Origin: an uncultured Pelagibacteraceae bacterium
GTDB taxonomy: Bacteria > Pseudomonadota > Alphaproteobacteria > Pelagibacterales > Pelagibacteraceae
Reading direction: 5' to 3'
NCBI GenBank assembly: GCA_902583345.1
Contig: CACHVT010000004.1
Coordinates: forward strand, 16,162-80,161
DNA length: 64,000 nucleotides
Positions 4,671 to 20,376 of this stretch are shown here, piece after piece. The notes under the pieces were generated by a model. It was not told the DNA's origin, did no database searches, and saw only the letters and a list, made by a program, of their open reading frames with translations. The position numbers were made by a program, and so were the translations under genes. The stretch's first letter is position 1. Each line of letters opens with the position of its first letter.

Positions 4671-5780
4671 ATGAAAAACTTTCCAATTGTAAAATCAAGA
4701 AGATTAAGAAGTACACCTTATACTGATAGAATAGAAGCTCAGGGTGTGAGCAGTTATACAGTTTATAATCATATGTTATTACCATCATCATTTAAATCTT
4801 TAGAATTTGATTACCATCATTTAAAAGAATTTGTACAAGTTTGGGATGTAGCAGCAGAACGACAAGTTGAAATTACTGGAAAGGATTCAGCCAAATTAGT
4901 TCAACTAATGACTTGTCGAGATTTGTCAAAATCTAAAATTGGAAGATGTTATTATGCTCCTTTAGTTGATCATAAAGGTCTTTTAGTAAATGATCCTATT
5001 ATAAATAAATTAGCAGAGGATAAATGGTGGATTTCAATTGCAGACTCTGATGTTATTTTTTTTGCAAAAGGTATAGCAGCTGGAAGCAAACTTGATGTAG
5101 AAATAAAAGAACCTAATGTAAATATTTTAGCGGTTCAAGGACCTTTTGCTGATAATTTAATGGCAAAATTATTTGGTGAAGAGATTAAAAAATTGAAATT
5201 TTTTAATTTTAACTATTTCGATTTTAAGGGTTATAAATATTTTATAGCTAGATCAGGTTGGTCGAAACAAGGGGGCTTTGAAGTTTATGTTGAAAATGAT
5301 TTAGCAGGTCAAGATTTATATGATTATCTTTTTGAAGCTGGAAAAGAATTTAATGTTAGACCTGGATGTCCAAACTTAATTGAAAGAATTGAATCAGCAC
5401 TGTTATCTTATGGAAACGATTTTGATAATAGAGATAATCCTTTTGAGGCAAATTTTGATAAGTATATAAATTTAGAAACTAAAATTGATTTTTTAGGAAA
5501 AGAAAAATTAAAAAACATAAAACAAGAAGGCATCAAAAGAAAGCTAATGGGTGTAAAAATTGATCATGATAAAATTGACATGTATTGTGAAAAAACATTA
5601 TTTGATGATAGTAATAATATTGTTGGCTATGTAAGATCAGCAGCTTATTCTCCTACTTTTAAAAAAGTAATCGGGATCGCAATGATTAATAAACCTTATT
5701 GGGATACGAATGATCAATTTAAAATAGAAATTGATGAAAAAATACATGTAGGAACAGTTTGCGATTTACCCTTCATTTAG
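4671..5780 (+). CDS. dmdA: Dimethylsulfoniopropionate demethylase (GcvT family)
   Basis: 369 aa with [42 protein letters not shown] and terminal CDLPFI, matching SAR11 DmdA as recalled. Confidence 0.95.
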
Positions 5781-5795
5781 TATAACTAAATCACC

Positions 5796-6803
5796 ATGGA
5801 TATAGCAATAGTCGGTGCAACAGGAAATGTAGGAAGAAAAATTTTAAAAGTCTTGGAAAATAAAAATTTTCCGGTTTCTAAATTATATTTAATTGCTTCT
5901 TCTAAAAGCTCAGGACAAAAAATTAATTTTAAAGATAAAGAATACACTGTTATTGACTTAGAAAAATTTGATTTTTCAAAATCAAAAATAGCATTTTTTG
6001 CTGCGGGAAGTACTGTTGCTGAAAAATGGGCTCCTATTGCAGCAAAAAAAACAATTGTTATAGATAATTCAAAATTTTTTAGAAAAGATCCAGAAATTCC
6101 TTTGATTGTGCCAGAGGTAAATTCCAAAGAGTTATCTCATTTTAAGAAAAAAAATATAATTGCAAATGCAAATTGTTCAGTAATACCTATGGTTGTAGCT
6201 TTGAAACCTTTACATGATCTTTACAATATAAAAAGAATTGTTGCATCAACTTATCAATCTGTCTCAGGCATAGGCAAGGCAGGCATGGATGAACTTTTAT
6301 CACAAACAAAAGAATATTTTGAAGGTAAAAAAATTGTATCACAAAATTTTACGAAACAAATAGCATTTAATGCCATTCCACATATTGATAGTTTTTTAGA
6401 AAATGGATCTACTAAGGAAGAACAAAAAAATCATGATGAGGTAAAAAAAATTTTGGATAATAAAATTAATATTACATCTACGTGTGTCAGAATTCCTGTT
6501 TTAGTTTCACACTCAATTAGTGTAAATGTTGAATTTCATAAAAAATATGATCTAAGTGAGATCAAAAATGTTTTATCTAGATCTCCAGGATGTAGAGTTA
6601 TTGATGAGCAAAAAGATGGAGGGTATATCACTCCTGTGGAAGCAGAAAATAAGTATGAAACTTTTATTTCTAGAATAAGAGACGATTCTTCTCAAGTGAA
6701 TACAATAAACTTATGGATTGTTTGTGATAATTTACTTAAAGGTGCTGCCTTAAATGCAGTTGAAATTGCAGAAAGTTTAATTAAACAGAAGTTACATGAC
6801 TGA
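5796..6803 (+). CDS. asd: Aspartate-semialdehyde dehydrogenase
   Basis: GATGNVG, IDNS, NANCS (catalytic Cys), CVRIPV...HS and DNLLKGAALN motifs. Confidence 0.95.
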   Translation: MDIAIVGATGNVGRKILKVLENKNFPVSKLYLIASSKSSGQKINFKDKEYTVIDLEKFDFSKSKIAFFAAGSTVAEKWAPIAAKKTIVIDNSKFFRKDPEIPLIVPEVNSKELSHFKKKNIIANANCSVIPMVVALKPLHDLYNIKRIVASTYQSVSGIGKAGMDELLSQTKEYFEGKKIVSQNFTKQIAFNAIPHIDSFLENGSTKEEQKNHDEVKKILDNKINITSTCVRIPVLVSHSISVNVEFHKKYDLSEIKNVLSRSPGCRVIDEQKDGGYITPVEAENKYETFISRIRDDSSQVNTINLWIVCDNLLKGAALNAVEIAESLIKQKLHD

Positions 6804-7179
6804 TAAAAATCCTTTGTCACCACATATACAAATTTACAATTGGCATATATCGTCTTTAATTTCAATTTGTCATAGAATAACAGGCATAATAAATATAATT
6901 ATTATAAGCCTAGTTTGTTTTTGGGTAGCTTTTTTGCTTTTAGGAAATTCAAGCTATGAATTTATTCAAAATTTTTTTGAAAGTTATTTTGGTAAATTTT
7001 TTATTTTAGGTACAGTTTGGTCCTTTTTGTTTCAGATATTAAGCGAGGTAAGACACATATTTTGGGATTTAGGATTTGGATTTGAATTAAAAACCTCAAA
7101 TATAACCGGTTTAATTGTTATTTTTGGATCTGTGGTTTTAACTGTAATAATTTTTATTTTAGGAAGAAATTTACTTTAA
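6796..7179 (+). CDS. sdhC: Succinate dehydrogenase membrane anchor subunit C
   Basis: PLSPHIQIY, SICHRITG and RH..WD motifs; three TM segments; precedes sdhDAB. Confidence 0.92.
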   Translation: MTDKNPLSPHIQIYNWHISSLISICHRITGIINIIIISLVCFWVAFLLLGNSSYEFIQNFFESYFGKFFILGTVWSFLFQILSEVRHIFWDLGFGFELKTSNITGLIVIFGSVVLTVIIFILGRNLL

Positions 7180-7508
7180 TGATTAGTGCAACTAAAAAAT
7201 GGATATTTTTAAAAATTAGTTCAGTTGTGCTTGTTCCATTAATGTTGTGGTTTTTGTTAAATTTAGTATCACTATACGACAAAAATTATACTGAAGTGTT
7301 ATTTTTTTTTACAAACCAACCGACAAAGTTTTTATTTTCATTATTTATTATTTTTGCTTACTTTTACTCAGCACTTAGTATTAGTGAGGTTTTTGAGGAC
7401 TATATTGAGAGCGAAAGCTTAAAAAATGTCGCAAACAAATTGCTCTTTTTATTTGCTATAATAATACCTATATCAACTCTACTAATATTGACTAAATTAA
7501 CTTTATGA
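7179..7508 (+). CDS. sdhD: Succinate dehydrogenase membrane anchor subunit D
   Basis: Three TM segments, VFEDY quinone-binding motif, positioned between sdhC and sdhA. Confidence 0.88.
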
Positions 7509-9280
7509 GCACATATAAAATTATAGAACACGAATATGACGTTGTTGTTTTAGGAGCTGGCGGGGCAGGTTTACGAGCAGCCGTTGGTTTAAGCGAAGCT
7601 GGGTTGAAAACAGCATGTATATCAAAAGTATTTCCCACAAGAAGCCATACTTCTGCTGCGCAAGGAGGAATCTCTGCAGCATTAGGAAACATGGGAGAAG
7701 ATGATTGGAGATGGCATATGTATGATACCGTTAAAGGAGCTGACTGGTTGGGAGATCAAGATTGTATTGAATATCTATGTAAAGAGGCTCCTAGAGCAGT
7801 ATTAGAGCTTGAGAAATATGGAGTTCCATTTAGTCGAACTGAAGATGGAAAAATTTATCAAAGACCTTTTGGCGGAATGACAAAAAACTATGGGAATGAA
7901 ACTGTGCAAAGAACTTGTGCAGCTGCAGATAGAACTGGTCATGCAATTTTACACACTATGTATGGACAAGCATTAAAGCATAATACAGAATTTTTTATTG
8001 AATACTTTGCTTTAGATTTACTTATGCAAGATGGTGAATGTAAAGGTTTAATAGCTTGGAATTTAAACGATGGAACTATTCATAGATTTAGATCTCATAT
8101 AACAATTATTGCAACTGGAGGATACGGAAAAACTTATTACTCATCTACATCTGCTCACACTTGTACCGGTGATGGCAATGCTATGGTATTAAGAGCTGGA
8201 TTACCGCTGCAAGATATGGAGTTTATACAATTTCATCCAACAGGAATCTATGGACATGGAACTTTAATTTCAGAAGGAGTTCGAGGTGAAGGAGGATACT
8301 TGCTCAACTCTAAAGGTGAGAGATTTATGGAAAGGTATGCTCCAAAAGCTAAGGATCTTGCCTCTAGAGATGTTGTAAGCAGATCAATAGCTGTTGAAAT
8401 TAATGAAGGAAGAGGAGTTGGAAAAGAAAAAGATCATGTGCATCTTCATTTAGATCATTTAGATCCAGAGGTAATTGAGAAAAGACTTCCGGGAATTTCA
8501 GAATCTTCAAGGTTGTTTGCCGATGTTGATGTTACAAAAGAACCAATACCTGTAGTTCCGACAGTTCATTATAATATGGGTGGTATACCGACAAATTATA
8601 AAGCTGAAGTTTTAACCGTAAATGGTTCAGAAAAAATTGTACCAGGACTTATGGCAATAGGTGAAGCTGCGTGTGTCTCAGTTCATGGAGCTAACAGACT
8701 TGGATCAAATTCATTAATAGATTTAGTAGTTTTTGGAAGAGCAGCAGCAAAAAGAGCTGCAGAACTAATAAAACCGGGAACTCCTCATGAGCAAATTTCG
8801 GTTTCTGAAACTGAAAAATGCTTAGATAGATTTGATAAATTAAGAAATGGAAATGGAACTAATAGAACTGCCGATCTAAGATTGTCTATGCAAAAAACAA
8901 TGCAGTCTAAATGTGCAGTATTTAGAACTGAAGAAACTTTAAAAGAAGGTGTGGAAGAAATAAGAAAACCATTCGAGGGAATGGATTCAATTTCAGTAAA
9001 AGATAAATCTTTAATTTTTAATACTGATTTAGTTGAAACTTTGGAGTTTGATAATTTAATAAGACAAGCAATAGTTACACTGGACTCTGCATATGAAAGA
9101 AAAGAAAGCAGAGGAGCTCATGCACGCGAAGATCATCCTAAAAGGGATGATAAAAACTATATGAAACATACATTATCTTGGTGTAAAGGTAGCAAAACTA
9201 AAATTTCTTACAGAGATGTTCACAGATCAACTCTATCAAACGATGTACAATATTTTCCACCACAAGAAAGAGTATATTAA
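7505..9280 (+). CDS. sdhA: Succinate dehydrogenase flavoprotein
   Basis: [16 protein letters not shown] (FAD-His), QFHPTG and [11 protein letters not shown]. Confidence 0.98.
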
Positions 9281-10053
9281 TGGTCCAAATAAATTTACCT
9301 CAAGGCTCAAAAGTTCAAAAAGGTAAATTTTATAAGGACAAGACTGGTTCAAAAAATATTAGAAAGGTAAATATTTATCGATGGGACCCTTCAACGGGAG
9401 AAAATCCTAGAATAGATACTTATGAGGTTGATATGGATAATTGTCCCTCGAAAGTTTTGGATTTGTTAAACAAAATCAAAAATGAAATTGATCCATCAAT
9501 TTCTTATAGAAGATCTTGTGCTCACGGTGTTTGTGGGTCATGCGCAATGAACATGGATGGAAAAAACGGATTAGCTTGTACAAAGCCCCATAAAGAAATT
9601 AAGGGAGACATAAATATATATCCATTACCCCATTTAAAAGTTCAAAAAGACTTAATAGGAGATTTAAGCACATTATATAGGCAATACTCGTCTGTTGAAC
9701 CATGGTTAAAAAATTCTAAAAAAGATGACGGCAAAGAAAATATACAAACTATAAAAGATAGATCTAAGTTGGATGGACTTTATGAGTGTATTATGTGTGC
9801 CTGTTGTTCAACTGCCTGCCCAAGCTATTGGTGGAATGGTGATAAATACCTGGGTCCAGCTGTTTTACTGCAAGCGTATAGATGGATAGTGGATAGCCGA
9901 GATGAAGAAAGAGAAGAAAGATTAAAAAAAGTAGCCGATGAATTGAAACTTTATAGATGTCACACTATCATGAATTGTACTAATGCATGTCCAAAGGGAC
10001 TAAATCCAGCCAAAGCAATTGCTGAGATAAAAAAGATGTTAGTTACATCTTAA
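9280..10053 (+). CDS. sdhB: Succinate dehydrogenase iron-sulfur subunit
   Basis: Three Cys clusters: [21 protein letters not shown] and [12 protein letters not shown]. Confidence 0.97.
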
Positions 10054-10061
10054 TTTTAAAT

Positions 10062-11555
10062 TTAAGATAAAACAGGTATGGTAAACTCAGGACCAGCATT
10101 ATCTTCTACCCAAGTTACTGTAGCAGTCTTAAGTTTTGTATAAAACCTTACTCCATCCGGACCATGGATTGAATGATCTCCAAATAAAGATCTTTTCCAT
10201 CCACCAAAGCTATGGTAGGCAACAGGAACAGGTATAGGAACGTTAACACCAATCATACCAATTTTTGCGTTTTCTGTGAAATGTTTTGCAATATTTCCAC
10301 TTTTTGTAAAAACTGCAGCACCATTTCCTAGCTCGTGTTCATTGACTAGATTTAGAGCCTCTTCATATGTATTTGTTGTCATCATACTTAATACTGGTCC
10401 AAAAATTTCTTCTTTGTATATTTTCATCTCTGGCTTAACATCATCAAATATTGTTGGTCCAACAAAATATCCGTTTTCATAACCTTGTTTTTTAAAATTT
10501 CTTCCATCCGAAAGTAACTTTGCACCCTCCTTTTCTCCGCTATCAATGTAACCTAAAACTTTTTCATAATGAGGTTTACTACTTAGAGGACCAAAATCTG
10601 ATTTTTCATCTGTATAAGGCCCCACATTTAACTTAGATGTTTTTTCTAGTAAATTATTTTTAATCTTTTCATTTGTGTTTTTACCAACACAAACAGCTAC
10701 TGAAATTGCCATACATCTTTCGCCCGCAGATCCAAAAGCTGAACCAATTATTGCATCTGTTGTTTTGTCAACATCAGCATCTGGCATTATCACCATATGA
10801 TTTTTTGCTCCGCCCAATGCCTGTACTCTTTTATTATTTTTTGTACCATTATGGTATACATATTCTGCTATGGGCGTTGAGCCTACAAAGCTAATAGCTT
10901 GAACATTTTTATGTTCTAATAATGCGTCTACTGCTTCTTTATCTCCATTTACTAAATTCAAAACTCCAGCTGGAAATCCTGCTTCTAAAGCCAATTCTGC
11001 GAGTCTAACTGGACAGCTAGGATCTTTTTCTGATGGTTTTAATATAAAAGTATTCCCACAAGCTAAAGCCACTGGGTACATCCACATTGGAACCATAGCT
11101 GGAAAATTAAAAGGAGTAATTCCTGCACAAACACCAAGAGGTTGACGCAAGGTATGAGAGTCAACATTTGTGCCAACATTAGATGAATGTTCACCTTTCA
11201 GAGATGATGTTATACCTGTTACATATTCAACAACTTCAATTCCTCTTTGAATAGATCCTTTTGCATCTGGAATAGTTTTGCCATGCTGTTTGGAAACTAG
11301 TTCAGCTAACTCATCCATATTTTTTACTAATAATTCTTTATATTTTGTAAAAATTCTTGCTCTAGTAATAGGAGTAGTTTTAGACCATTTTAAAAAAGCT
11401 TTAGCGGAACTTTCGACTGCTAAATCTATAACTTCTTTACTTCCTAATTCGACTTCAGCTATTTGCTCACCTGTCGCAGGATTAAATACTTTACTTTTTC
11501 TTGAATCACTTTTTGTAAATTTTTTCCCATCGATAAAATGGCTTATTACTTCCAT
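10062..11555 (-). CDS. mmsA: CoA-acylating methylmalonate/malonate-semialdehyde dehydrogenase (MmsA/IolA/DddC family)
   Basis: ITPFNFPAMVPMW, KPSEKDP, FVGST, GAKNH, AGERCMA (catalytic Cys) and EEIFGPV. Confidence 0.93.
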   Translation of the reverse strand: MEVISHFIDGKKFTKSDSRKSKVFNPATGEQIAEVELGSKEVIDLAVESSAKAFLKWSKTTPITRARIFTKYKELLVKNMDELAELVSKQHGKTIPDAKGSIQRGIEVVEYVTGITSSLKGEHSSNVGTNVDSHTLRQPLGVCAGITPFNFPAMVPMWMYPVALACGNTFILKPSEKDPSCPVRLAELALEAGFPAGVLNLVNGDKEAVDALLEHKNVQAISFVGSTPIAEYVYHNGTKNNKRVQALGGAKNHMVIMPDADVDKTTDAIIGSAFGSAGERCMAISVAVCVGKNTNEKIKNNLLEKTSKLNVGPYTDEKSDFGPLSSKPHYEKVLGYIDSGEKEGAKLLSDGRNFKKQGYENGYFVGPTIFDDVKPEMKIYKEEIFGPVLSMMTTNTYEEALNLVNEHELGNGAAVFTKSGNIAKHFTENAKIGMIGVNVPIPVPVAYHSFGGWKRSLFGDHSIHGPDGVRFYTKLKTATVTWVEDNAGPEFTIPVLS

Positions 11556-11586
11556 AAAAGACCTTAAATTTTAATAATTTTTTAAA

Positions 11587-11595
11587 ATTATAGCA
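11587..11595 (-). promoter_or_regulatory. Extended -10 promoter element for mmsA
   Basis: Minus strand reads TGcTATAAT, a perfect TGnTATAAT, about 31 nt upstream of the start codon. Confidence 0.5.
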
Positions 11596-11691
11596 TGCGA
11601 TTTTTTACAAATCTACTGTTGACTCTGATTTTTACATGTACTTAAATTAGAAGATATTTTTTTATCGAGCTAAGGAGAGGATCTCAAAAAA

Positions 11692-12873
11692 ATGAGAGAC
11701 AACGTTAGAGTTTGTGTGCCTAGATACTTGCAAATTGGCAAAGGAAGTCTAAATCAGCTCCCAGAAATAATCAAAATATTAGGATCTATAAAATCATTGT
11801 TAATTGTTACCGATAAACAGATGGTTCATTTTGGATATGTTAAAAAATTACAAGACGTTTTAAATAAGGCGGGTTTAAAATCCAATGTGTTTGAGGATAC
11901 AATTCCAGATCCTACCGACAAAGTTGTTTTAAATGGTGTTGAAGTTTTACAAAAAAATAAAAATGACGCTGTTATAGGTTTTGGGGGTGGTAGCCCAATA
12001 GATACAGCTAAAGCCATCGCTGTTCTTTCTCAGTATAGTAAAGATATTCAAGATTATAAACCACCTGGGACTTTTGATAAAAAAGGTCTACCAATTATTG
12101 CTATACCTACAACAGCAGGAACGGGTTCAGAAGTTACTCACCATTCAGTTATTATAGATACAAAAACTAATAATCTTGAAAAAATTTCATGTAGAGGTGA
12201 AGGTTTTGTACCGATAGTTTCAATAATAGATTACGAATTAACTTTATCTAAGCCTAGAAGATTAACAATTGATAGTGCGATTGATACCTTAACACATGGA
12301 ATAGAAGCATATGTAAGTAAAAAGGCAACTTTATTTTCAGACAGAATGGCTCTTGATACAATAAGACTTGTTACTGAAAATATATATGCAGTCGATAAAA
12401 ATCCTAAAGATATAAAAGCAAGGGAAGGTTTGATGCTAGCAGCTACCTTGGGAGGATTAGCTTTTTCAAATGCATCAATATGTCTTGTTCATGGAATGAG
12501 TAGACCGTTAGGAAGTAATTTTAAAGTTCCACATGGTTTAAGTAATGCAATGTTATTACCTACTATTACAGAATTTTCAGTAGATCATGCTAAAAGTCGT
12601 TATGCTGATTGTAGCAGAGCAGGAAGATTTGCTTCAGTAGACGATGATGATGAAATTGCGTGTAAAAAGCTGTTACAAGGACTCTATAAAATTAATAAGG
12701 ATTTTGAAGTACCATCTATGAAAAATTTTGGAATAGATCAGAAAAATTTTGAGGACCAGTTAGAAAATATGGCAACAGATGCTGAAATATCTGGCGCACC
12801 TGGCCTTAATCCAAGAGTGCCATCTGTAAAAGAAATGATTAATCTTTATGGAGAAGCATGGAGAGCATTTTAA
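11692..12873 (+). CDS. Iron-containing (group III) alcohol dehydrogenase
   Basis: GGGSPIDTAK and PTTAGTGSE, plus metal ligands in DTLTH, VHGMSRP and PHG. Strong SD (AAGGAGAGG) upstream. Confidence 0.92.
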   Translation: MRDNVRVCVPRYLQIGKGSLNQLPEIIKILGSIKSLLIVTDKQMVHFGYVKKLQDVLNKAGLKSNVFEDTIPDPTDKVVLNGVEVLQKNKNDAVIGFGGGSPIDTAKAIAVLSQYSKDIQDYKPPGTFDKKGLPIIAIPTTAGTGSEVTHHSVIIDTKTNNLEKISCRGEGFVPIVSIIDYELTLSKPRRLTIDSAIDTLTHGIEAYVSKKATLFSDRMALDTIRLVTENIYAVDKNPKDIKAREGLMLAATLGGLAFSNASICLVHGMSRPLGSNFKVPHGLSNAMLLPTITEFSVDHAKSRYADCSRAGRFASVDDDDEIACKKLLQGLYKINKDFEVPSMKNFGIDQKNFEDQLENMATDAEISGAPGLNPRVPSVKEMINLYGEAWRAF

Positions 12874-12939
12874 GTTAGAGTTGGGATGTTCTTCTATTTA
12901 TTAACTAACAACTCTTAAAATAATAAAGAGAGGGAAATA

Positions 12940-14004
12940 ATGAAAAAACTAATGAAAACATCTGTTAGTCTTTTTGCTGTTTTTGCTTTGATGATTTCTT
13001 TTTCATTTCAGCAAGTAAGTGCAGCAGAAAAGATTAGATGGAAAGTACAATCTACTTTTAATACTGGTTGGCCTGCTCTAGGAGATCCTGTTGCACGTTT
13101 ATCAGATACACTAGATAGAGCGACTGATGGTAGAATCAAATTAAAGGTTTATGAGCCTGGAAAAATTCTTCCACCTTTAGAAATTTCACCTTCAATAAGC
13201 AAAGGTGATTTACCAGCAGCTTACAACTACATGGCCTATGACCAAGGAAGAATTCCAGCAGCAGTACTATTTGCAGCTGTACCATTTGGAATGGAACCTT
13301 GGGAATATGCAGCTTGGTGGTTTGAAGGAGAAGGCGCAAAACTAGCTAATGAAATTTACAATAAACAAAATATACAAGTTTTATTGTGTAGTACAATTGG
13401 ACCTGAAACAGCTGGTTGGTATAGAAATCCTATAACTAGCTTAGCAGATCTTAAAGGTTTAAAAATTCGTTTCTCTGGTTTAGGAGGAATGGTTTTAAAT
13501 GAAATAGGTGCGTCTGCAACTTTGATGGCAGGAGGAGAAATTTTTGCAGCTCTAGAAAAAGGAACTCTAGACGCAACTGAATATTCTATGCCTGCAATTG
13601 ATGAGGTTTTAGGTTTTCATAAAATAACCAAGTTTAACCTGTTTCCAGGTTGGCACCAAGTATCAACATCTACCCATTTCATGATCAATTTAGATTTATG
13701 GAAAAAAATGGGAGCAGCTGACCAAGCTTTATTCGAAATGGCTTGTACAGCAGCGGCTATGAGAGCAATAACAACTGGTGAATATTTACAAGGTAAGCAA
13801 ATTCAAAGTTTTCCTGGTAAAGGCGTAACAGCTGCTAGATTGCCTGATAGTGTATTGAGAGAACTTCAAAAAGTAAGCGCAAGAGTTATGAAAGAAGAAT
13901 CTGCAAAAGATGCTGACTTTAAAAGAGTATGGGAATCTCAACAAGCATTCATGAAAGAGTATGATGTTTGGCAAAAATGGGGATATTTACCAAGAAACTT
14001 TTAG
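12940..14004 (+). CDS. dctP: TRAP transporter substrate-binding protein (TakP/monocarboxylate type)
   Basis: Sec signal peptide, conserved Arg in LKIRFSG, GGEIF..LEKG.LDATE and PGWHQ. Confidence 0.9.
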   Translation: MKKLMKTSVSLFAVFALMISFSFQQVSAAEKIRWKVQSTFNTGWPALGDPVARLSDTLDRATDGRIKLKVYEPGKILPPLEISPSISKGDLPAAYNYMAYDQGRIPAAVLFAAVPFGMEPWEYAAWWFEGEGAKLANEIYNKQNIQVLLCSTIGPETAGWYRNPITSLADLKGLKIRFSGLGGMVLNEIGASATLMAGGEIFAALEKGTLDATEYSMPAIDEVLGFHKITKFNLFPGWHQVSTSTHFMINLDLWKKMGAADQALFEMACTAAAMRAITTGEYLQGKQIQSFPGKGVTAARLPDSVLRELQKVSARVMKEESAKDADFKRVWESQQAFMKEYDVWQKWGYLPRNF

Positions 14005-14032
14005 TATTTAATACTGAAAATTTGATTATAAT

Positions 14033-14070
14033 AATAAAAGCGGCCGGTTTCACCGGCTGCTTTTATTTTT
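14033..14070 (+). terminator. GC-rich hairpin with U-tract between dctP and dctQ
   Basis: AATAAAAGCGGCCGGT-ttc-ACCGGCTGCTTTTATT (one G-U pair), followed by Ts. Confidence 0.8.
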
Positions 14071-14084
14071 AAAGAAAGAAATTT

Positions 14085-14654
14085 ATGTCTAATGATTTTG
14101 CTAAAGTTGGAAGTTCACTTGATAAAAAACTTCAACTTAGACATTTGCCTATTACAAAGGCCATAGATAATTTTGTACTACGTATTGGCGAGGTTTTTAA
14201 TTGGCTGTGGGTGATACTTGTAGCTGTTATAATTTTAAACGTAGTTTTAAGATATGTTTTTAAAAATGGAATGATTGAGTTAGAAGAATTACAATGGCAT
14301 CTTTATTGTATTGGGTGGCTAGTAGGTCTTTCTTCTACATATATAGTTGATTCACATGTAAGAGTAGATGTTTTAAGTGAGCGGCTAAGTTATAGAAAAA
14401 AATTATGGTTTGAATTATTTGGGATTCTAATATTATTTTTACCATTTGTAATTCTTGTTCTTTATTATGCGGTCCCTTTTTTTGAACTATCATGGACTAC
14501 GAGTGAAAGATCAACATCTGCAAATGGTCTGCCTGCTAGATGGTTTGTTAAAGGTTTCTTAGTCATTAGTTTTTTCTTATTACTTATCTCTGGAATATCA
14601 AGAATAACAAGAATCATTGCAACGATTCGATTTGGGCTAGAGTACAAAAAATGA
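14085..14654 (+). CDS. dctQ: TRAP transporter small permease
   Basis: Four TM segments, ELQWHLY and HVRVD motifs. Confidence 0.92.
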   Translation: MSNDFAKVGSSLDKKLQLRHLPITKAIDNFVLRIGEVFNWLWVILVAVIILNVVLRYVFKNGMIELEELQWHLYCIGWLVGLSSTYIVDSHVRVDVLSERLSYRKKLWFELFGILILFLPFVILVLYYAVPFFELSWTTSERSTSANGLPARWFVKGFLVISFFLLLISGISRITRIIATIRFGLEYKK

Positions 14655-16015
14655 TTTCATTAGTTACAGAATATTTTTTAGCAATTGCTCTCTTTTTTAG
14701 TTTTATAACACTAATTTTTTACGGATTTCCAGTTGCTTGGACTATGGGCGGTTTAGGAGTTCTTTTTATATTTATTTCAATGCTTTCTGATAGTTTATTT
14801 GACACTTTTTATGGTGTTGACTTTGGATTTGCTTCAATGGTTGTTTATAGGCTTTATGGAGTTATGGCAAATTGGGTTCTTGTTGCATTACCGATGTTTA
14901 TTTTTATGGGCATAATGATGGATAAATCTGGTATAGCAGAGGATTTAATGACTGACTTGTCGAAGTTATTTGGCAAAACAAGAGGCGGACTTGCAATATC
15001 AATTGTATTTATAGGAGTTTTGCTTGCAGCCTCAACAGGAATTATTGGTGCTGCAGTAGTATTGTTAACAATTTTGGGCGTACCTCTCATGCTAAAAAAT
15101 AAATACAATCCAAATTTAGCATGTGGAGTAGTTTGTGCTACTGGAACATTAGGTATTTTGATACCACCTAGCATCATGCTTGTAATAATGGGAGACCAAG
15201 TAAGAATATCTGTTGGTGATTTATTTATGGGAGCAGTTTTTCCAGGACTTTTATTAGGTTTATTGTATACAATTTTTATTGTTGTTTACGCCTATATGAA
15301 TCCAAAAGCTGCACCTCTTCCAAAAGATGCTGAACCAGTAGATTTAAAAATAATTTTAAGAGTCTTGAAATCTATAATTCCACCTGCTTTATTAATTGTT
15401 GCAGTTTTAGGCAGTATATTCATGGGTATAGCAACTCCAACTGAAGCATCAGGAGTTGGAGCTTTAGGCGCTTCCCTATTAGCTATACTTAGAGGAAGGT
15501 TGTCCTTTTCAGATTTAAAGCATGTAATAAGAAAAACTACTCATACAACTGCATATATTTTTGCACTTTTTGTAGGTGCAACTATGTTTGCATTAATTTT
15601 AAGAGGTTTGGGCGGCGATGAACTAATAGAAGGAGCCCTTAAAGCTTTACCATTTGGCACAAATGGAGTTGTAATAGTTGTTCTCGTAGTTGCGTTTTTA
15701 TTGGGATTCTTTTTAGATTGGATAGAAATTACTTTAATTATCTTACCGTTTTTAGCACCAGTTATGGTTGATCTCGGAGTGGACTTAGTTTGGTTTATAG
15801 TAATGTTTGCAGTTGTTTTGCAAACTTCTTTTATAACCCCACCAGTCGGATTTGCTTTATTTTATATGAAAGGTGTTGCGCCACAAGGGATAACAATAAC
15901 AAATATTTACAAGGGAATAATTCCATTTGTAATTCTTCAAGTCGTAGCAGTTGCTATTGTATTTAATTTTCCCGAAATAGTAACTTGGTTGCCTAAAGCA
16001 GCTTATGGCCCATAA
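14651..16015 (+). CDS. dctM: TRAP transporter large permease
   Basis: ALPMFIFMG, GTLGILIPPS, ATPTEA and TSFITPPVG motifs. Confidence 0.94.
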   Translation: MISLVTEYFLAIALFFSFITLIFYGFPVAWTMGGLGVLFIFISMLSDSLFDTFYGVDFGFASMVVYRLYGVMANWVLVALPMFIFMGIMMDKSGIAEDLMTDLSKLFGKTRGGLAISIVFIGVLLAASTGIIGAAVVLLTILGVPLMLKNKYNPNLACGVVCATGTLGILIPPSIMLVIMGDQVRISVGDLFMGAVFPGLLLGLLYTIFIVVYAYMNPKAAPLPKDAEPVDLKIILRVLKSIIPPALLIVAVLGSIFMGIATPTEASGVGALGASLLAILRGRLSFSDLKHVIRKTTHTTAYIFALFVGATMFALILRGLGGDELIEGALKALPFGTNGVVIVVLVVAFLLGFFLDWIEITLIILPFLAPVMVDLGVDLVWFIVMFAVVLQTSFITPPVGFALFYMKGVAPQGITITNIYKGIIPFVILQVVAVAIVFNFPEIVTWLPKAAYGP

Positions 16016-16032
16016 AACAGATATTCAATATC

Positions 16033-16476
16033 ATGAAAAAAATAAATTTTTTTATAGTTATCATGGGTATGCTGAGTCTAACAAATTTTGCTAAAGCAGA
16101 ACTTAATATTTCTTTAAAAAAATATTTAGATGAAAAAAATGTAGAGAATAGCTCAACTCAAATTTATTTGTTGAAAAGATGTAGTGCAATTTATGCGTAT
16201 GCATCTGGAATAGTCCTTAGGTCTGATTCGATATCTTCAAAAAATTTTATAGAAATTTCAAACAATTTATTATTTAAATCTGTAGAATTAATGGTTATTG
16301 ATGAAAGTAAAAAGCTTGAGACGGCACAAAAGGAGGCAGAGAAAGATAGAAAAGATTTTTTCAGTAATTATATAGTTGATGGCAAAAAAAATTGGGAAAA
16401 AAACAAATCTTACTTCAAAGGTTCATATATATCTGAAGATATGGCTATCTGTTCAAAACTAACTGAAGAAAATTAA
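16033..16476 (+). CDS. Hypothetical exported protein
   Basis: 147-aa ORF with signal peptide (AKA cleavage site) and two Cys; no family recognised. Confidence 0.7.
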   Translation: MKKINFFIVIMGMLSLTNFAKAELNISLKKYLDEKNVENSSTQIYLLKRCSAIYAYASGIVLRSDSISSKNFIEISNNLLFKSVELMVIDESKKLETAQKEAEKDRKDFFSNYIVDGKKNWEKNKSYFKGSYISEDMAICSKLTEEN

Positions 16477-16480
16477 AAAG

Positions 16481-17290
16481 ATGTTTAAAAAAATATTCCG
16501 AATTTATCAAGAGGATTCTTTTGGAGGAATTAAAAGACGTTTATTAATTCGTTTTTGGTTAATTAAATTTATAATTTTAAAATTTTTTAAAAAGCAAATT
16601 GTCAATACTTATTATGGTGTTAAGCTTAATTCAAATTATGATGATGCTACTTTTAGGTTCTATATGACTGGTTTTTACGGCGATGATTATTGGAAACATA
16701 TTACTGATAAAAATCAGCCATTTATCTTTCTAGATATAGGAGCAAATCAGGGTTTGTATACCCTTTGTGCAGGAATGAATAAAAATTGTATCGCTTGTTT
16801 TTCTTTCGAACCAGTTGGGAGAACTTTTTCTTTACTTAAAAAGAATGTTATTATTAATGATCTTTCAACCAAATGTCATTTATTCAATAAGGCTATTTCA
16901 AACAAAAGTGGACAATGTGAAATCTCAATTAAGGCTAATCATTCTGGCGCTGCATCAATGTGTTCAGGAAATGATTTGACTAAAGATGCTAATAATAATA
17001 TTGAGTTAGTAGAAGCAATTTCTTACATCGAACTTGACAGTTTGATTAGTAATAAAGATAAAGTAGAGCTTATAGTTAAGATTGATGTTGAAGGATTTGA
17101 AATGAATGTCGTTAAAGAGCTTTTTAAAACTCAAATGGCAAAAGATATTTCCGAAATATACTTTGAAGTAAATGAAAGATGGGTTAATTATAATGATATC
17201 GAGGTTTTGCTTAAATCAAATGGCTATAAATTTTTTTCTAAAACATCAACAAATACAAAGTATTATGACGTTTATGCTAGTAAAAATTAA
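16481..17290 (+). CDS. FkbM-family SAM-dependent methyltransferase
   Basis: FLDIGANQG, FEP and KIDVEGFE motifs. Confidence 0.9.
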   Translation: MFKKIFRIYQEDSFGGIKRRLLIRFWLIKFIILKFFKKQIVNTYYGVKLNSNYDDATFRFYMTGFYGDDYWKHITDKNQPFIFLDIGANQGLYTLCAGMNKNCIACFSFEPVGRTFSLLKKNVIINDLSTKCHLFNKAISNKSGQCEISIKANHSGAASMCSGNDLTKDANNNIELVEAISYIELDSLISNKDKVELIVKIDVEGFEMNVVKELFKTQMAKDISEIYFEVNERWVNYNDIEVLLKSNGYKFFSKTSTNTKYYDVYASKN

Positions 17291-17358
17291 AATATTTTTA
17301 GGATTTTTGATTATTTACAAAAAAGTTTTTATATTGAATAATTATTAGTTATTAATAA

Positions 17359-18338
<980 letters not shown>

Positions 18339-18339
<1 letters not shown>

Positions 18340-19499
18340 TGAATATTCACGAATACCAAGCTAAAGAAATCTTAAAGAAATATGGAGTAACTGTACCAAA
18401 TGGGGTCTTTGGTCTAACGGTAGAAGAGTTAATTGAAAAATCAAAATCGTTAAATACTAAAAAGTATATTCTTAAAGCACAAATTCATGCAGGCGGGAGG
18501 GGTAAAGCAGGAGGTGTAAAAATACTTAATAGTATAACAGAATTAACTGAAGCTTCTAAAGAAATGATGGGTAAGAAAATTATTACTCATCAAACTGGAC
18601 CAGAAGGCAAAATTGTTAAAAGATTATATGTAGAAGAATCTTCTAATATAAAAAAAGAATTTTATTTATCTTGTTTAGTTGATAGGGCAAGTTCAAAAGT
18701 TGCATTTATTTCAAGCGATCAAGGTGGGATAGATATAGAAGATGTTGCAAAAAAAAATCCAGAAAAAATTATTACAACAAAAATTAATTATTCTGAAGAA
18801 GTTTCAGACCAAGATTGTGAAAAAATAATAAATATATTTTGTTTAGAAGAAAAAATAAAAGTTCAAGGAAAAAATTTAATTAAAGCAATTTACAAAATGT
18901 TTATAAGTACAGATGCCAGCATGGTTGAGATTAACCCTTTAATTTTGACTAAAGAGGGAAACATCATTTGTTTAGATGCTAAAGTCAATTTTGATGATAA
19001 TGCTTTGTTTAAGCATCCTGACATAGCTCAACTTAGAGACTTAAGCGAAGAAGATCCAATTGAAATAGAAGCAAGAAAACATGATTTATCTTATATTAAA
19101 TTAGATGGAAGCATAGGATGTATGGTTAATGGTGCTGGTTTAGCTATGGCTACAATGGATATTATTAAACTTTACGGAGAAGAACCTGCTAACTTTTTAG
19201 ATGTTGGAGGTGGAGCCTCTAAAGAAAAAGTTACTGAGGCACTAAAATTAATTCTCTCAGATAAAAATGTAAAGGGAATTTTAATTAATATATTTGGAGG
19301 AATTATGAGATGTGATGTCCTTGCGCAAGGAGTAGTAAATGCAGCAAAAGATATGGATATTAATGTTCCTTTAGTAGTCAGATTAGCAGGAACAAATTTT
19401 AAAGAAGGAAAAAAAATATTAGATAGTTCTGGATTAAAATTAATTTCGGCTGAAAATTTAGATGATGCAGCAAAAAAAATAGTGGGAGCTATAAAGTAA
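18339..19499 (+). CDS. sucC: Succinyl-CoA synthetase beta subunit
   Basis: [27 protein letters not shown] and NIFGGI. Confidence 0.98.
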
Positions 19500-19500
19500 A

Positions 19501-20376
19501 ATGTCAATATTAGTTGATAAAAATACAAAAGTAATTTGCCAAGGTTTTACAGGATCTCATGGCACATTCCATTCTGAACAAGCAATTAAATATGGAACAA
19601 ATTTGGTAGGTGGTGTTACCCCAAAAAAAGGAGGACAAATACATCTTGATCGGCCCGTTTTTAATACCGTTGAAGAAGCAAAAAAAGAAACTGGTGCTAA
19701 TGCAAGCATGATTTATGTTCCAGCTAAATTTGCAGCCTCAGCTATAATTGAAGCAATTGAATCTTCTATAGAAATCATAGTTTGCGTTACTGAAGGAATA
19801 CCAGTTCAAGATATGCTTAGAGTTAAGTTTAAATTAATGAATTCAAAAAGTAGATTAATAGGACCTAATTGCCCAGGAATAATTACTCCTGGCGAATGTA
19901 AAATTGGAATTATGCCTGGTATTATTCATAAGAAAGGTAACGTTGGAATTGTATCAAGATCTGGTACTTTAACTTATGAAGCGGTTGCTCAGACTACAGA
20001 AAATGGGTTAGGTCAATCATCGTGTATTGGAATCGGTGGAGATCCAATAAACGGAACAAGTTTTATTGATTGTTTAGATTTATTTTTAAAGGATGATGAA
20101 ACTAAATCAATTTTGATGATCGGAGAAATAGGTGGAACATCAGAGGAAGAAGCTTCTGAATTTCTTAAAAAACATAAAGTTAAAAAACCAATAGTTGGTT
20201 TTATTGCAGGAATTACTGCCCCACCAGGAAGAAGAATGGGTCATGCTGGAGCCATTATCTCAGGAGGTAAAGGAACAGCTCAAGACAAAATAAATAAGAT
20301 GAAGGAATGTGGAATTACAATCGCAAAATCACCTGCAGAAATAGGCAAAACGTTATTAAAAAAATTGTCTAATTGA
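19501..20376 (+). CDS. sucD: Succinyl-CoA synthetase alpha subunit
   Basis: [20 protein letters not shown] and RMGHAGA. Confidence 0.98.

Follow-up and report, generated by a model that had tools for sequence, protein, structure and literature searches.

A candidate uptake and oxidation island for a short 3-hydroxy acid at the mmsA locus of Pelagibacteraceae

The island and its place in the genome

The stretch of DNA analysed here, referred to as the window, comprises 64,000 nucleotides from an uncultured Pelagibacteraceae bacterium. Between sdhB (9280–10053) and mdh (17374–18339) it carries a divergent set of genes, with an allele of mmsA, termed mmsA′, on the minus strand at 10062–11555, and a gene for an Fe-dependent alcohol dehydrogenase (Fe-ADH) followed by the TRAP transporter genes dctP, dctQ and dctM on the plus strand at 11692–16015. 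An ORF scan of the window placed these five genes on the strands and at exactly the coordinates given by an earlier sequence-only reading, and the flanking genes named there, sdhB, mdh and, further upstream, dmdA (4671–5780; NF009133, 560 bits), were confirmed by family matches and coordinates. Two further plus-strand genes had been overlooked. One of them, the sixth co-directional gene (16033–16476), is the last gene of the island; it lies directly after dctM in every island copy examined and encodes a small secreted protein with a signal-peptide-like N-terminal sequence, for which Pfam and NCBIfam gave no match and the Atlas only unnamed clusters. In genus g1 this gene turned up solely in island genomes (3 of 20), and in genus g17 it also occurs beside canonical mmsA. 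The other (16481–17290) encodes an FkbM-family methyltransferase (TIGR01444, 76 bits); it was inserted in this genome only, and none of the 13 other complete island loci mapped contains it.

The normal layout in Pelagibacteraceae is sdhCDAB-mmsA-mdh, with mmsA always between sdhB and mdh. The unit had been described as interrupting a run of TCA cycle genes, a description that fails because mmsA is itself canonical at this position and the island replaces that copy. At the mmsA locus the island forms a replacement allele, made up of an inverted mmsA′, Fe-ADH, dctPQM and the gene for the small secreted protein; canonical SAR11 mmsA shares ~59% identity with mmsA′ and lies at this locus in reverse orientation. 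Fe-ADH and mmsA′ are divergent neighbours 136 bp apart, an arrangement kept in all island copies, and in 13/13 other complete loci mapped the order is identical: sdhB, iclR-mmsA′ facing away from Fe-ADH-dctPQM and the small-protein gene, then mdh. The end of dmdA lies 4.3 kb upstream of the island, in agreement with the distance of about 4 kb noted previously; the significance read into that distance has not survived, since in genus g17 the island is found at leuB-asd-sdh, with no dmd genes. As the island is also present without adjacent dmd genes, the dmd neighbourhood is coincidental, and closeness to dmdA carries no weight as evidence.

Distribution, ancestry and regulation

This is an accessory catabolic island, present in ~5% of Pelagibacter species. 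Orthologues of Fe-ADH and DctP (>75% identity) were found in the same five of 150 family genomes, DctP occurring in ~5% of the genus, so that the expected co-occurrence of parts is borne out by a perfect match between these two in the sampled genomes. A search for homologous proteins returned only near-identical marine metagenome proteins without useful names. Outside SAR11, another marine alphaproteobacterium carries between recombinases the genes for an IclR protein, an aldehyde dehydrogenase (ALDH) of the (methyl)malonate-semialdehyde dehydrogenase (MMSDH) type, Fe-ADH (62%), DctP (80%) and DctM (76%), and in G293 and G441 Fe-ADH, mmsA and a TakP-class TRAP system are clustered. Across Pelagibacter species DctP is 94–98% identical, compared with only 78–81% for sucC of the same species, and DctM is 95–98% identical across the genus; other TRAP binding proteins in Pelagibacteraceae show ~24–31% identity to the island DctP. 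Recent transfer was considered as the cause of the high DctM identity and rejected, as the 4-fold sites are saturated (0.45–0.58). Divergence at the 4-fold sites of dctP is low (0.26–0.41), for which codon bias or recombination is a possible cause. Strong purifying selection acts on both proteins, DctP as well as DctM.

The island allele is the sole mmsA in this genome and in other island genomes. In the mmsA tree the clade of island copies and that of canonical SAR11 copies each have a support of 100 and are not sisters; mmsA′ might be a foreign xenologue, but an AU test did not reject monophyly of SAR11 mmsA (p 0.296). As the only copy, mmsA′ could be present merely by virtue of the housekeeping role of the gene that was replaced.

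An IclR-family gene (~253 aa; PF01614, 1e-28 to 1e-29) stands at the sdhB–mmsA′ junction in 12/12 other island genomes tested. Here that junction is reduced to positions 10054–10061, between the end of sdhB at 10053 and the start of the mmsA′ stop codon at 10062; no regulator gene was found within the island of this window, and no IclR homologue anywhere in this genome (86.8% complete). The divergent promoter spacer (11556–11691) keeps, at 11619, the TTGACT conserved in all aligned island copies. It lacks a 21-nt box, TAAATGAGAAAANNNTTATCA, which occurs once per spacer in all 14 regulator-bearing island genomes and which found no match in this window even with 3 mismatches allowed. To call the unit regulator-free, as was done from the window, is correct for this DNA but not for the island as such, given IclR in the 12 others and the box in 14. 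Scans for sigma-70 promoters and terminators gave nothing above chance. In its usual form the island would be a divergent pair of operons, one arm holding mmsA′-iclR and the other Fe-ADH-dctP-dctQ-dctM with the gene for the small secreted protein, presumably under IclR control. The regulator and its presumed operator have been lost secondarily in this one genome, and with both lost the island is probably expressed constitutively here. The locus provides a clean case of a core gene replaced by a larger cassette, followed by loss of regulator and operator in one lineage.

The encoded proteins and the proposed pathway

MmsA′ (497 aa) belongs with the CoA-acylating MMSDHs of TIGR01722, which it matches at 660.6 bits (cut-off 448.5), and is related to the solved MMSDHs 4e4g (MmsA; E 3e-191) and 4zz7 (E 3e-184). 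MmsA′ has the motifs GERCMA (residue 278) and LGGAKNH, both of which it shares with canonical SAR11 MmsA; the cassette ALDH of the other marine alphaproteobacterium has GQRCLA and GGAKNF instead. We take GERCMA to contain the Arg-Cys active-site pair and GGAKN to replace the Glu-bearing motif of ALDHs. By these marks MmsA′ qualifies as a full MMSDH.

The Fe-ADH (11692–12873; 393 aa; PF00465 and PF25137) is DddB-like and is proposed to be a 3-hydroxy-acid dehydrogenase; among NCBIfam equivalogs none scored above cut-off. In the alignment D198, H202, H267 and H281, which bind the metal, and the GGGS motif (98–101) are all invariant, so that the Fe-ADH fold has its metal and NAD motifs intact. 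The enzyme is 51% identical over its full length to DddB of Enterovibrio norvegicus (E 5e-139), the Fe-ADH of a dddD cluster, which agrees with the likeness to a DddB/DddC pair seen in the sequence-only reading, and 62% identical to the mobile-cassette copy. In a tree from a quick search that included one DddB, the Enterovibrio protein belongs to the group that is sister to the SAR11 Fe-ADH clade (SH-aLRT 93); that group also includes Fe-ADHs from unrelated contexts, for example beside pyruvate formate-lyase, so that an identity of ~50% cannot fix the substrate. For L074 and L100, two Fe-ADHs of the sister group, the surrounding genes were unrelated or gave no information, and a 46%-identical Fe-ADH (P0122) was discarded as a context clue, its neighbourhood being unrelated. 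Lactaldehyde reductase is also among the relatives of the Fe-ADH, as are methanol or propanediol dehydrogenases. Elsewhere, Fe-ADH and mmsA adjoin in G239, G393 and two Methylobacterium genomes, and such pairs also recur without any TRAP system.

The transporter comprises DctP (12940–14004; 354 aa; PF03480), a solute-binding protein of the TakP class, and, adjoining it and co-directional, the small membrane subunit DctQ (14085–14654; 189 aa; PF04290, 7.6e-16) and the large membrane subunit DctM (14651–16015; 454 aa; PF06808, 1.6e-74; TIGR00786, 294 bits, cut-off 268), all on the plus strand. A G+C-rich palindromic hairpin, GCCGGTGAAACCGGC, lies just after dctP (14043–14057; 6 pairs, 5 of them G-C) and might serve to raise the binding-protein message over that of the membrane subunits. 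Among solved structures DctP is closest to TakP (2hzk, E 1e-54) and then to binders of keto acids, pyruvate and lactate. Aligned with TakP, DctP keeps the carboxylate-binding Arg177 and Tyr100, plus Glu214; where the cation ligands of TakP are Gln156, Glu214 and Glu240, DctP has Glu at 156 and Gln at 240, the oxygen ligands being retained, and a six-oxygen cation site is plausible. Of the positions that form the hydrophobic pocket of TakP for the aliphatic tail of a 2-oxo acid (Y99, F40, V97, V245, A212, A213, P243, T153 and I47), 5/9 are changed in DctP (V97Y, Y99A, T153I, P243T and V245T), with polar residues at three of them (V97Y, P243T and V245T), and the pocket still has F40, L47 and I153. 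As this tail pocket is not that of TakP, DctP would work in a TakP-like manner but is not to be filed as an alpha-keto-acid binder. The polar residues Y97, T243 and T245 recur in the independent G293 cluster, and E156, Q240 and T243 also occur in relatives without an Fe-ADH neighbour. A 50%-identical relative of DctP adjoins an SDR and a CoA-transferase, a context that suggests 3-hydroxybutyrate or acetoacetate. One observation counts against 3-hydroxypropionate (3-HP) as ligand: the closest solved relatives all bind 2-oxo or 2-hydroxy acids, with the cation chelating the alpha oxygen, and 3-HP has no alpha oxygen.

We propose, with moderate confidence, that the island imports and oxidises a short 3-hydroxy acid, likeliest 3-HP. 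The TakP-class TRAP system would import a short 3-hydroxy monocarboxylate from seawater, the DddB-like Fe-ADH would oxidise the primary alcohol of this substrate to (methyl)malonate semialdehyde, and MmsA′ would convert the semialdehyde to acetyl-CoA (or propionyl-CoA) and CO2. Both the substrate and the direction in which the Fe-ADH works are inferred, 3-HP being the most likely substrate and 3-hydroxyisobutyrate the second.

The same pathway might instead serve 3-hydroxyisobutyrate or a different 3-hydroxy acid, branched or with four carbons, and lead through methylmalonate semialdehyde to propionyl-CoA. MMSDHs accept both malonate and methylmalonate semialdehyde, as the names of TIGR01722 and of the solved entries state, F40, L47 and I153 in the DctP pocket could seat a methyl group, and the closest genomic context of a relative of DctP speaks for a 3-hydroxy or 3-oxo acid of C4. 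We nevertheless regard such a substrate as unlikely: DddB is the only relative of the Fe-ADH with a substrate defined by context, and its dddD cluster yields 3-HP; for 3-hydroxyisobutyrate, Cupriavidus and Pseudomonas have a dehydrogenase, HbdH, whose gene is separate from that of the 3-HP dehydrogenase HpdH; and 3-hydroxyisobutyrate dehydrogenases are not known to be Fe-ADHs.

Two further readings would dissolve the pathway itself. The transporter could resemble TakP in function and take up 2-oxo or 2-hydroxy monocarboxylates (such as pyruvate, lactate or 2-oxobutyrate) in a manner uncoupled from MmsA, with mmsA′ a housekeeping gene and the Fe-ADH devoted to another alcohol or aldehyde. The close solved relatives of DctP, which all bind pyruvate, 2-oxo acids or lactate together with a cation, and the apparently retained cation site favour such an importer, as does the fact that mmsA is in every case a core gene at the locus; SAR11 bacteria are, moreover, known users of pyruvate. 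This reading has only a low probability in our judgement, as it sits poorly with the five pocket-lining positions that differ from TakP, with the cassette in the foreign host, where an MMSDH-type ALDH, though no core gene there, still stands next to Fe-ADH-dctPQM, with the divergent layout, IclR gene and conserved box that tie the two arms together, and with the recurrence of Fe-ADH/mmsA pairs that have no TRAP system. We consider it very unlikely that the Fe-ADH works reductively to clear malonate semialdehyde, or some other reactive aldehyde, or that it oxidises a neutral alcohol, without a linear route from uptake to CoA ester. Lactaldehyde reductase and the methanol or propanediol dehydrogenases among its relatives, and the close relative beside pyruvate formate-lyase, would suit such a role. 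TRAP systems, however, take anionic solutes through a conserved Arg, here residue 177, an aldehyde reductase whose gene precedes that of an importer and lies opposite that of an aldehyde dehydrogenase would be in competition with the latter enzyme, and nothing in the conserved context requires a neutral alcohol. Returning to the uptake and oxidation of 3-HP, a wider scenario is possible, if speculative: the island may hold the first dedicated 3-HP TRAP importer, in a cassette that is mobile among marine Alphaproteobacteria and has become fixed at mmsA in part of the SAR11 population, which would cross-feed on 3-HP from DddD-type DMSP cleavers or other producers, with the present genome as a variant made constitutive by loss of the regulator.

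Comparison with known systems

Among transporters, TakPQM of Rhodobacter sphaeroides (2hzk/2hzl), a TRAP system for alpha-keto acids, provides the best solved relative of DctP, gap-free over residues 27–346; the island differs in its swapped cation ligands (Q156E, E240Q) and in having Fe-ADH and MmsA as genomic partners. Clifton et al. (2024) characterised a single TRAP binding protein from Ca. P. ubique HTCC1062, SAR11_0864. It is likewise a SAR11 TRAP binding protein, its ligand binding having been assayed with added Ca2+, but the compound assayed was the sulfonate isethionate, and the study dealt with HTCC1062 proteins and did not include the island DctP. The carbon sources of SAR11 are poorly mapped, and this systematic binding-protein study covered one strain, which is without the island.

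The hpdH-mmsA operons of Cupriavidus necator and Pseudomonas denitrificans combine a 3-HP dehydrogenase with MmsA, are induced by 3-HP and have their own regulator (PMC6572756); in contrast to the island, HpdH is annotated as choline-dehydrogenase-like rather than as an Fe-ADH, and the regulator is of the LysR type. No transporter is named in that study (PMC6572756). A Cereibacter transposon paper, considered as a link between 3-HP and TRAP transport, mentions both many times and ties no TRAP system to 3-HP. If the ligand of DctP is 3-HP, this would be the first 3-HP transporter, none being named in the literature covered.

The dddD-dddR/dddT-dddB-dddC clusters of Oceanospirillales and Vibrionaceae (Marinomonas sp. 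MWYL1 type) resemble the island in pairing an Fe-ADH (51%) with a CoA-acylating MmsA-type ALDH (51%), and DddB and DddC are held to take 3-HP via malonate semialdehyde to acetyl-CoA (PMC9327192). A complete cluster of this kind in Enterovibrio norvegicus DSM 15893 (L087) encodes a DddD-like double CoA-transferase of 836 aa, a LysR regulator, a BCCT transporter, Fe-ADH and MmsA. The SAR11 island, in contrast, has neither the DddD lyase/CoA-transferase nor the BCCT DMSP importer; IclR stands in for LysR and a TRAP importer for DddT, and its enzyme genes are divergent where those of the dddD clusters are in tandem. Neither dddD nor dddT is present within the island, and a search for DddD in this genome (86.8% complete) gave only a weak single-domain CoA-transferase match (35% over 194 aa); that no DMSP lyase of the DddD type was found fits the scavenging of an external substrate. 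As the island encodes no DddD or DMSP importer, its substrate would have to come from outside the cell, and if that substrate is 3-HP, part of SAR11 would exploit a DMSP-cleavage product while producing no DMS itself, an added cross-feeding link in the marine sulfur and carbon cycles.

The mmsA slot and its occupants

In island-less genomes of five Pelagibacteraceae genera (loci L043-L050) the gene order is sdhCDAB-mmsA-mdh-sucCDAB-lpd on a single strand, so the (methyl)malonate-semialdehyde dehydrogenase gene mmsA is a fixed resident of this TCA run, which corresponds to 6796-20376 of the window. Where the island is present, the canonical mmsA is absent and its slot is filled by an IclR-family gene, an inverted allele (mmsA′, ~59% identical to canonical SAR11 mmsA), an iron-type alcohol dehydrogenase gene (Fe-ADH), dctPQM and a gene for a small secreted protein; the same order occupies the same slot in 13 of 13 other complete island loci mapped. 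The parts also travel together: orthologues of Fe-ADH and DctP (>75% identity) are present in the same five of 150 family genomes, which represent two genera, and of 400 species sampled from the window's own genus 19 have a DctP orthologue. The genomes G041, G058, G087 and G614 are complete, which points to existing cultures.

The source genome is of SAR11 type (47 contigs totalling 1.13 Mb, G+C ~0.30, completeness 86.8%). All five open reading frames claimed from the sequence alone were recovered, with identical coordinates. On the minus strand, mmsA′ (10062-11555) scores 660.6 bits against TIGR01722 (cut-off 448.5) and matches the solved MmsA structure 4e4g with an E value of 3e-191. On the plus strand, the 393-residue Fe-ADH (11692-12873) retains its four metal ligands and an intact GGGS motif; none of the curated equivalogs scored above its cut-off, the highest being ErcA (279 bits, cut-off 550) and lactaldehyde reductase (270, cut-off 523). 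The TRAP genes dctP, dctQ and dctM, identified by family matches, follow 3′ in that order, and the dctP-dctQ spacer holds a G+C-rich palindromic hairpin at 14043-14057, GCCGGTGAAACCGGC, in otherwise A+T-rich surroundings. Two further genes had been overlooked: a 147-residue protein with a signal peptide (16033-16476), which is a member of the unit in all other island copies, and an FkbM-family methyltransferase (16481-17290) between the last island gene and mdh, which only the window genome has among 14 complete island loci compared.

One flank of the island reads dmdC-dmdB-hydrolase-dmdA-asd-sdhCDAB and the opposite flank mdh-sucCDAB-lpd. The closeness to dmdA, pointed out from the sequence alone, is a by-product of core gene order, since g17, a second genus, has the island at leuB-asd-sdh and no dmd genes in the vicinity. 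One g17 metagenome-assembled genome (G028) carries both the island form (contig C53, L037) and a canonical mmsA-hyp-mdh form (C20, L046), which probably reflects strain heterogeneity within the bin.

Regulator loss, age and origin

The description of the unit as free of a regulator is correct for the window and incorrect for the island in general. A 253-residue IclR-family gene lies between mmsA′ and sdhB in 12 of the 12 other island genomes tested, and each of the 14 island genomes that bear the regulator, from both genera, has a 21-nucleotide box, TAAATGAGAAAANNNTTATCA, exactly once, between mmsA′ and Fe-ADH. In the window the sdhB-mmsA′ gap is only 8 bp, the box has no match with up to three mismatches allowed, and a search of the source genome (86.8% complete) for IclR homologues found none; the conserved element TTGACT is still present at 11619. 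The absence of both regulator and box thus represents a secondary loss in the window lineage, and if the IclR protein is a repressor, as we infer, this loss would give constitutive expression.

Fourfold degenerate sites differ between island copies by ~0.5–0.6, as saturated as those of the flanking genes, and across species whose SucC is 78–81% identical DctM is 95–98% and DctP 94–98% identical. Taken together, these values indicate long residence under strong purifying selection. Within the unit, dctP (12940-14004) has a markedly lower divergence at fourfold sites (0.26–0.41 in pairwise, genus-wide comparisons) than its neighbours (0.45–0.70); high expression with strong codon bias, or else recombination, could account for this. 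In the tree, island mmsA′ and canonical SAR11 mmsA fall into two clades with support of 100 apiece that are not sisters, although a common origin is still allowed by an AU test (p 0.296). Within genus g1 the small secreted protein turned up only in island genomes, and in g17 it also adjoins canonical mmsA; from this we infer that g1 may have imported the segment from a g17-like lineage, by recombination in the sdhB and mdh flanks.

Relatives of the Fe-ADH and a mobile cassette

The second-best match in a scan of representative genomes was the Fe-ADH of Enterovibrio norvegicus DSM 15893, which is encoded with an 836-residue DddD-like protein containing two CoA-transferase III domains, a LysR regulator, a BCCT transporter and mmsA. 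This is the synteny of Marinomonas dddBCDRT, in which DddB and DddC convert 3-hydroxypropionate (3-HP) via malonate semialdehyde to acetyl-CoA (PMC9327192). In keeping with the proposed likeness to DddB, the SAR11 enzyme is 51% identical to Enterovibrio DddB over its full length, and a quick tree places the latter in the sister group (SH-aLRT 93) of the SAR11-plus-cassette clade. However, that sister group also holds Fe-ADHs with unrelated neighbours such as pyruvate formate-lyase, so identity of ~50% cannot fix the substrate. An Fe-ADH adjoins mmsA in G239, G393, G293/G441 and two Methylobacterium genomes as well, accompanied in G293/G441 by a TakP-class TRAP system. The cluster of G293, an alphaproteobacterium, adjoins a gene of the carbamoylase/allantoate-amidohydrolase family and an OHCU-decarboxylase-like gene (L075:5700-7666), neighbours that may connect it with the breakdown of ureides or N-carbamoyl-beta-alanine.

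A related cassette (L080:5723-17000; also L070 and L081-L084) was found in a marine alphaproteobacterium with a G+C of ~0.57, compared with 0.475 for the cassette itself. It encodes IclR (54% identical to the island protein), a 506-residue aldehyde dehydrogenase (ALDH), Fe-ADH (62%), DctP (80%), DctQ and DctM (76%). With a 204-residue tyrosine-integrase fragment and HicA/HicB at one border, a 437-residue serine recombinase and DUF2924 at the other, and an IS91-type transposase on one contig, it resembles an integrative mobile element. Its Fe-ADH recurs, identical in sequence, in 255 blocks of the assembly collection. Although the cassette ALDH shares only 38% identity with each of the two SAR11 MmsA forms, it passes TIGR01722 (458 bits, cut-off 448.5) and retains the Arg-Cys and GGAKN motifs. 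That an MMSDH-type ALDH lies divergent from Fe-ADH-dctPQM even where it is not a core gene argues that this enzyme is part of the pathway.

The binding protein and a putative 3-HP module

The solved proteins closest to DctP are TakP, which binds 2-oxo acids, together with a 'ketoacid-binding protein', proteins solved with pyruvate, and a binder of lactate. The alignment with TakP is gap-free over residues 27–346, so the published ligand contacts (PMC1839085) can be transferred directly. Arg177, Tyr100 and Glu214 are retained, whereas Gln156 and Glu240 are exchanged for Glu and Gln and five substitutions reline the hydrophobic tail pocket (V97Y, Y99A, T153I, P243T, V245T). The independent G293 DctP, 42% identical overall, follows the same pattern (W97, G99, I153, E156, Q240, T243, Q245); E156, Q240 and T243 are also common to relatives without an Fe-ADH neighbour, which have F or E at 245. 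One such relative, a 50%-identical TakP-class dctPQM (L209:7438-17195, G243), has genes for a sigma-54 activator, a hydrolase of the alpha/beta type, an SDR and a 661-residue CoA-transferase as neighbours, and may serve uptake of 3-hydroxybutyrate or acetoacetate. Overall, the ligand is likely to be a short anionic monocarboxylate that carries a polar group past C2; a 3-hydroxy acid fits this description, a fit rather than a proof.

We give roughly even chances to the island being a self-contained uptake and oxidation module whose substrate is 3-HP or, with lower probability, 3-hydroxyisobutyrate. The TRAP system would bring in the hydroxy acid, the DddB-like Fe-ADH would oxidise it, and MmsA′ would carry out the CoA-acylating decarboxylation. 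DddD was not found in the source genome (86.8% complete), so the substrate would come from outside. No 3-HP transporter is named in the literature surveyed, in which SAR11 binding proteins were examined systematically for one strain, whose TRAP protein differs from the island DctP. The component families are all known already; the novelty lies in their pairing with a TRAP importer, in an island that takes the place of the core mmsA, in its occurrence as a mobile cassette, and in the loss of both the regulator and its presumed operator from the window genome.
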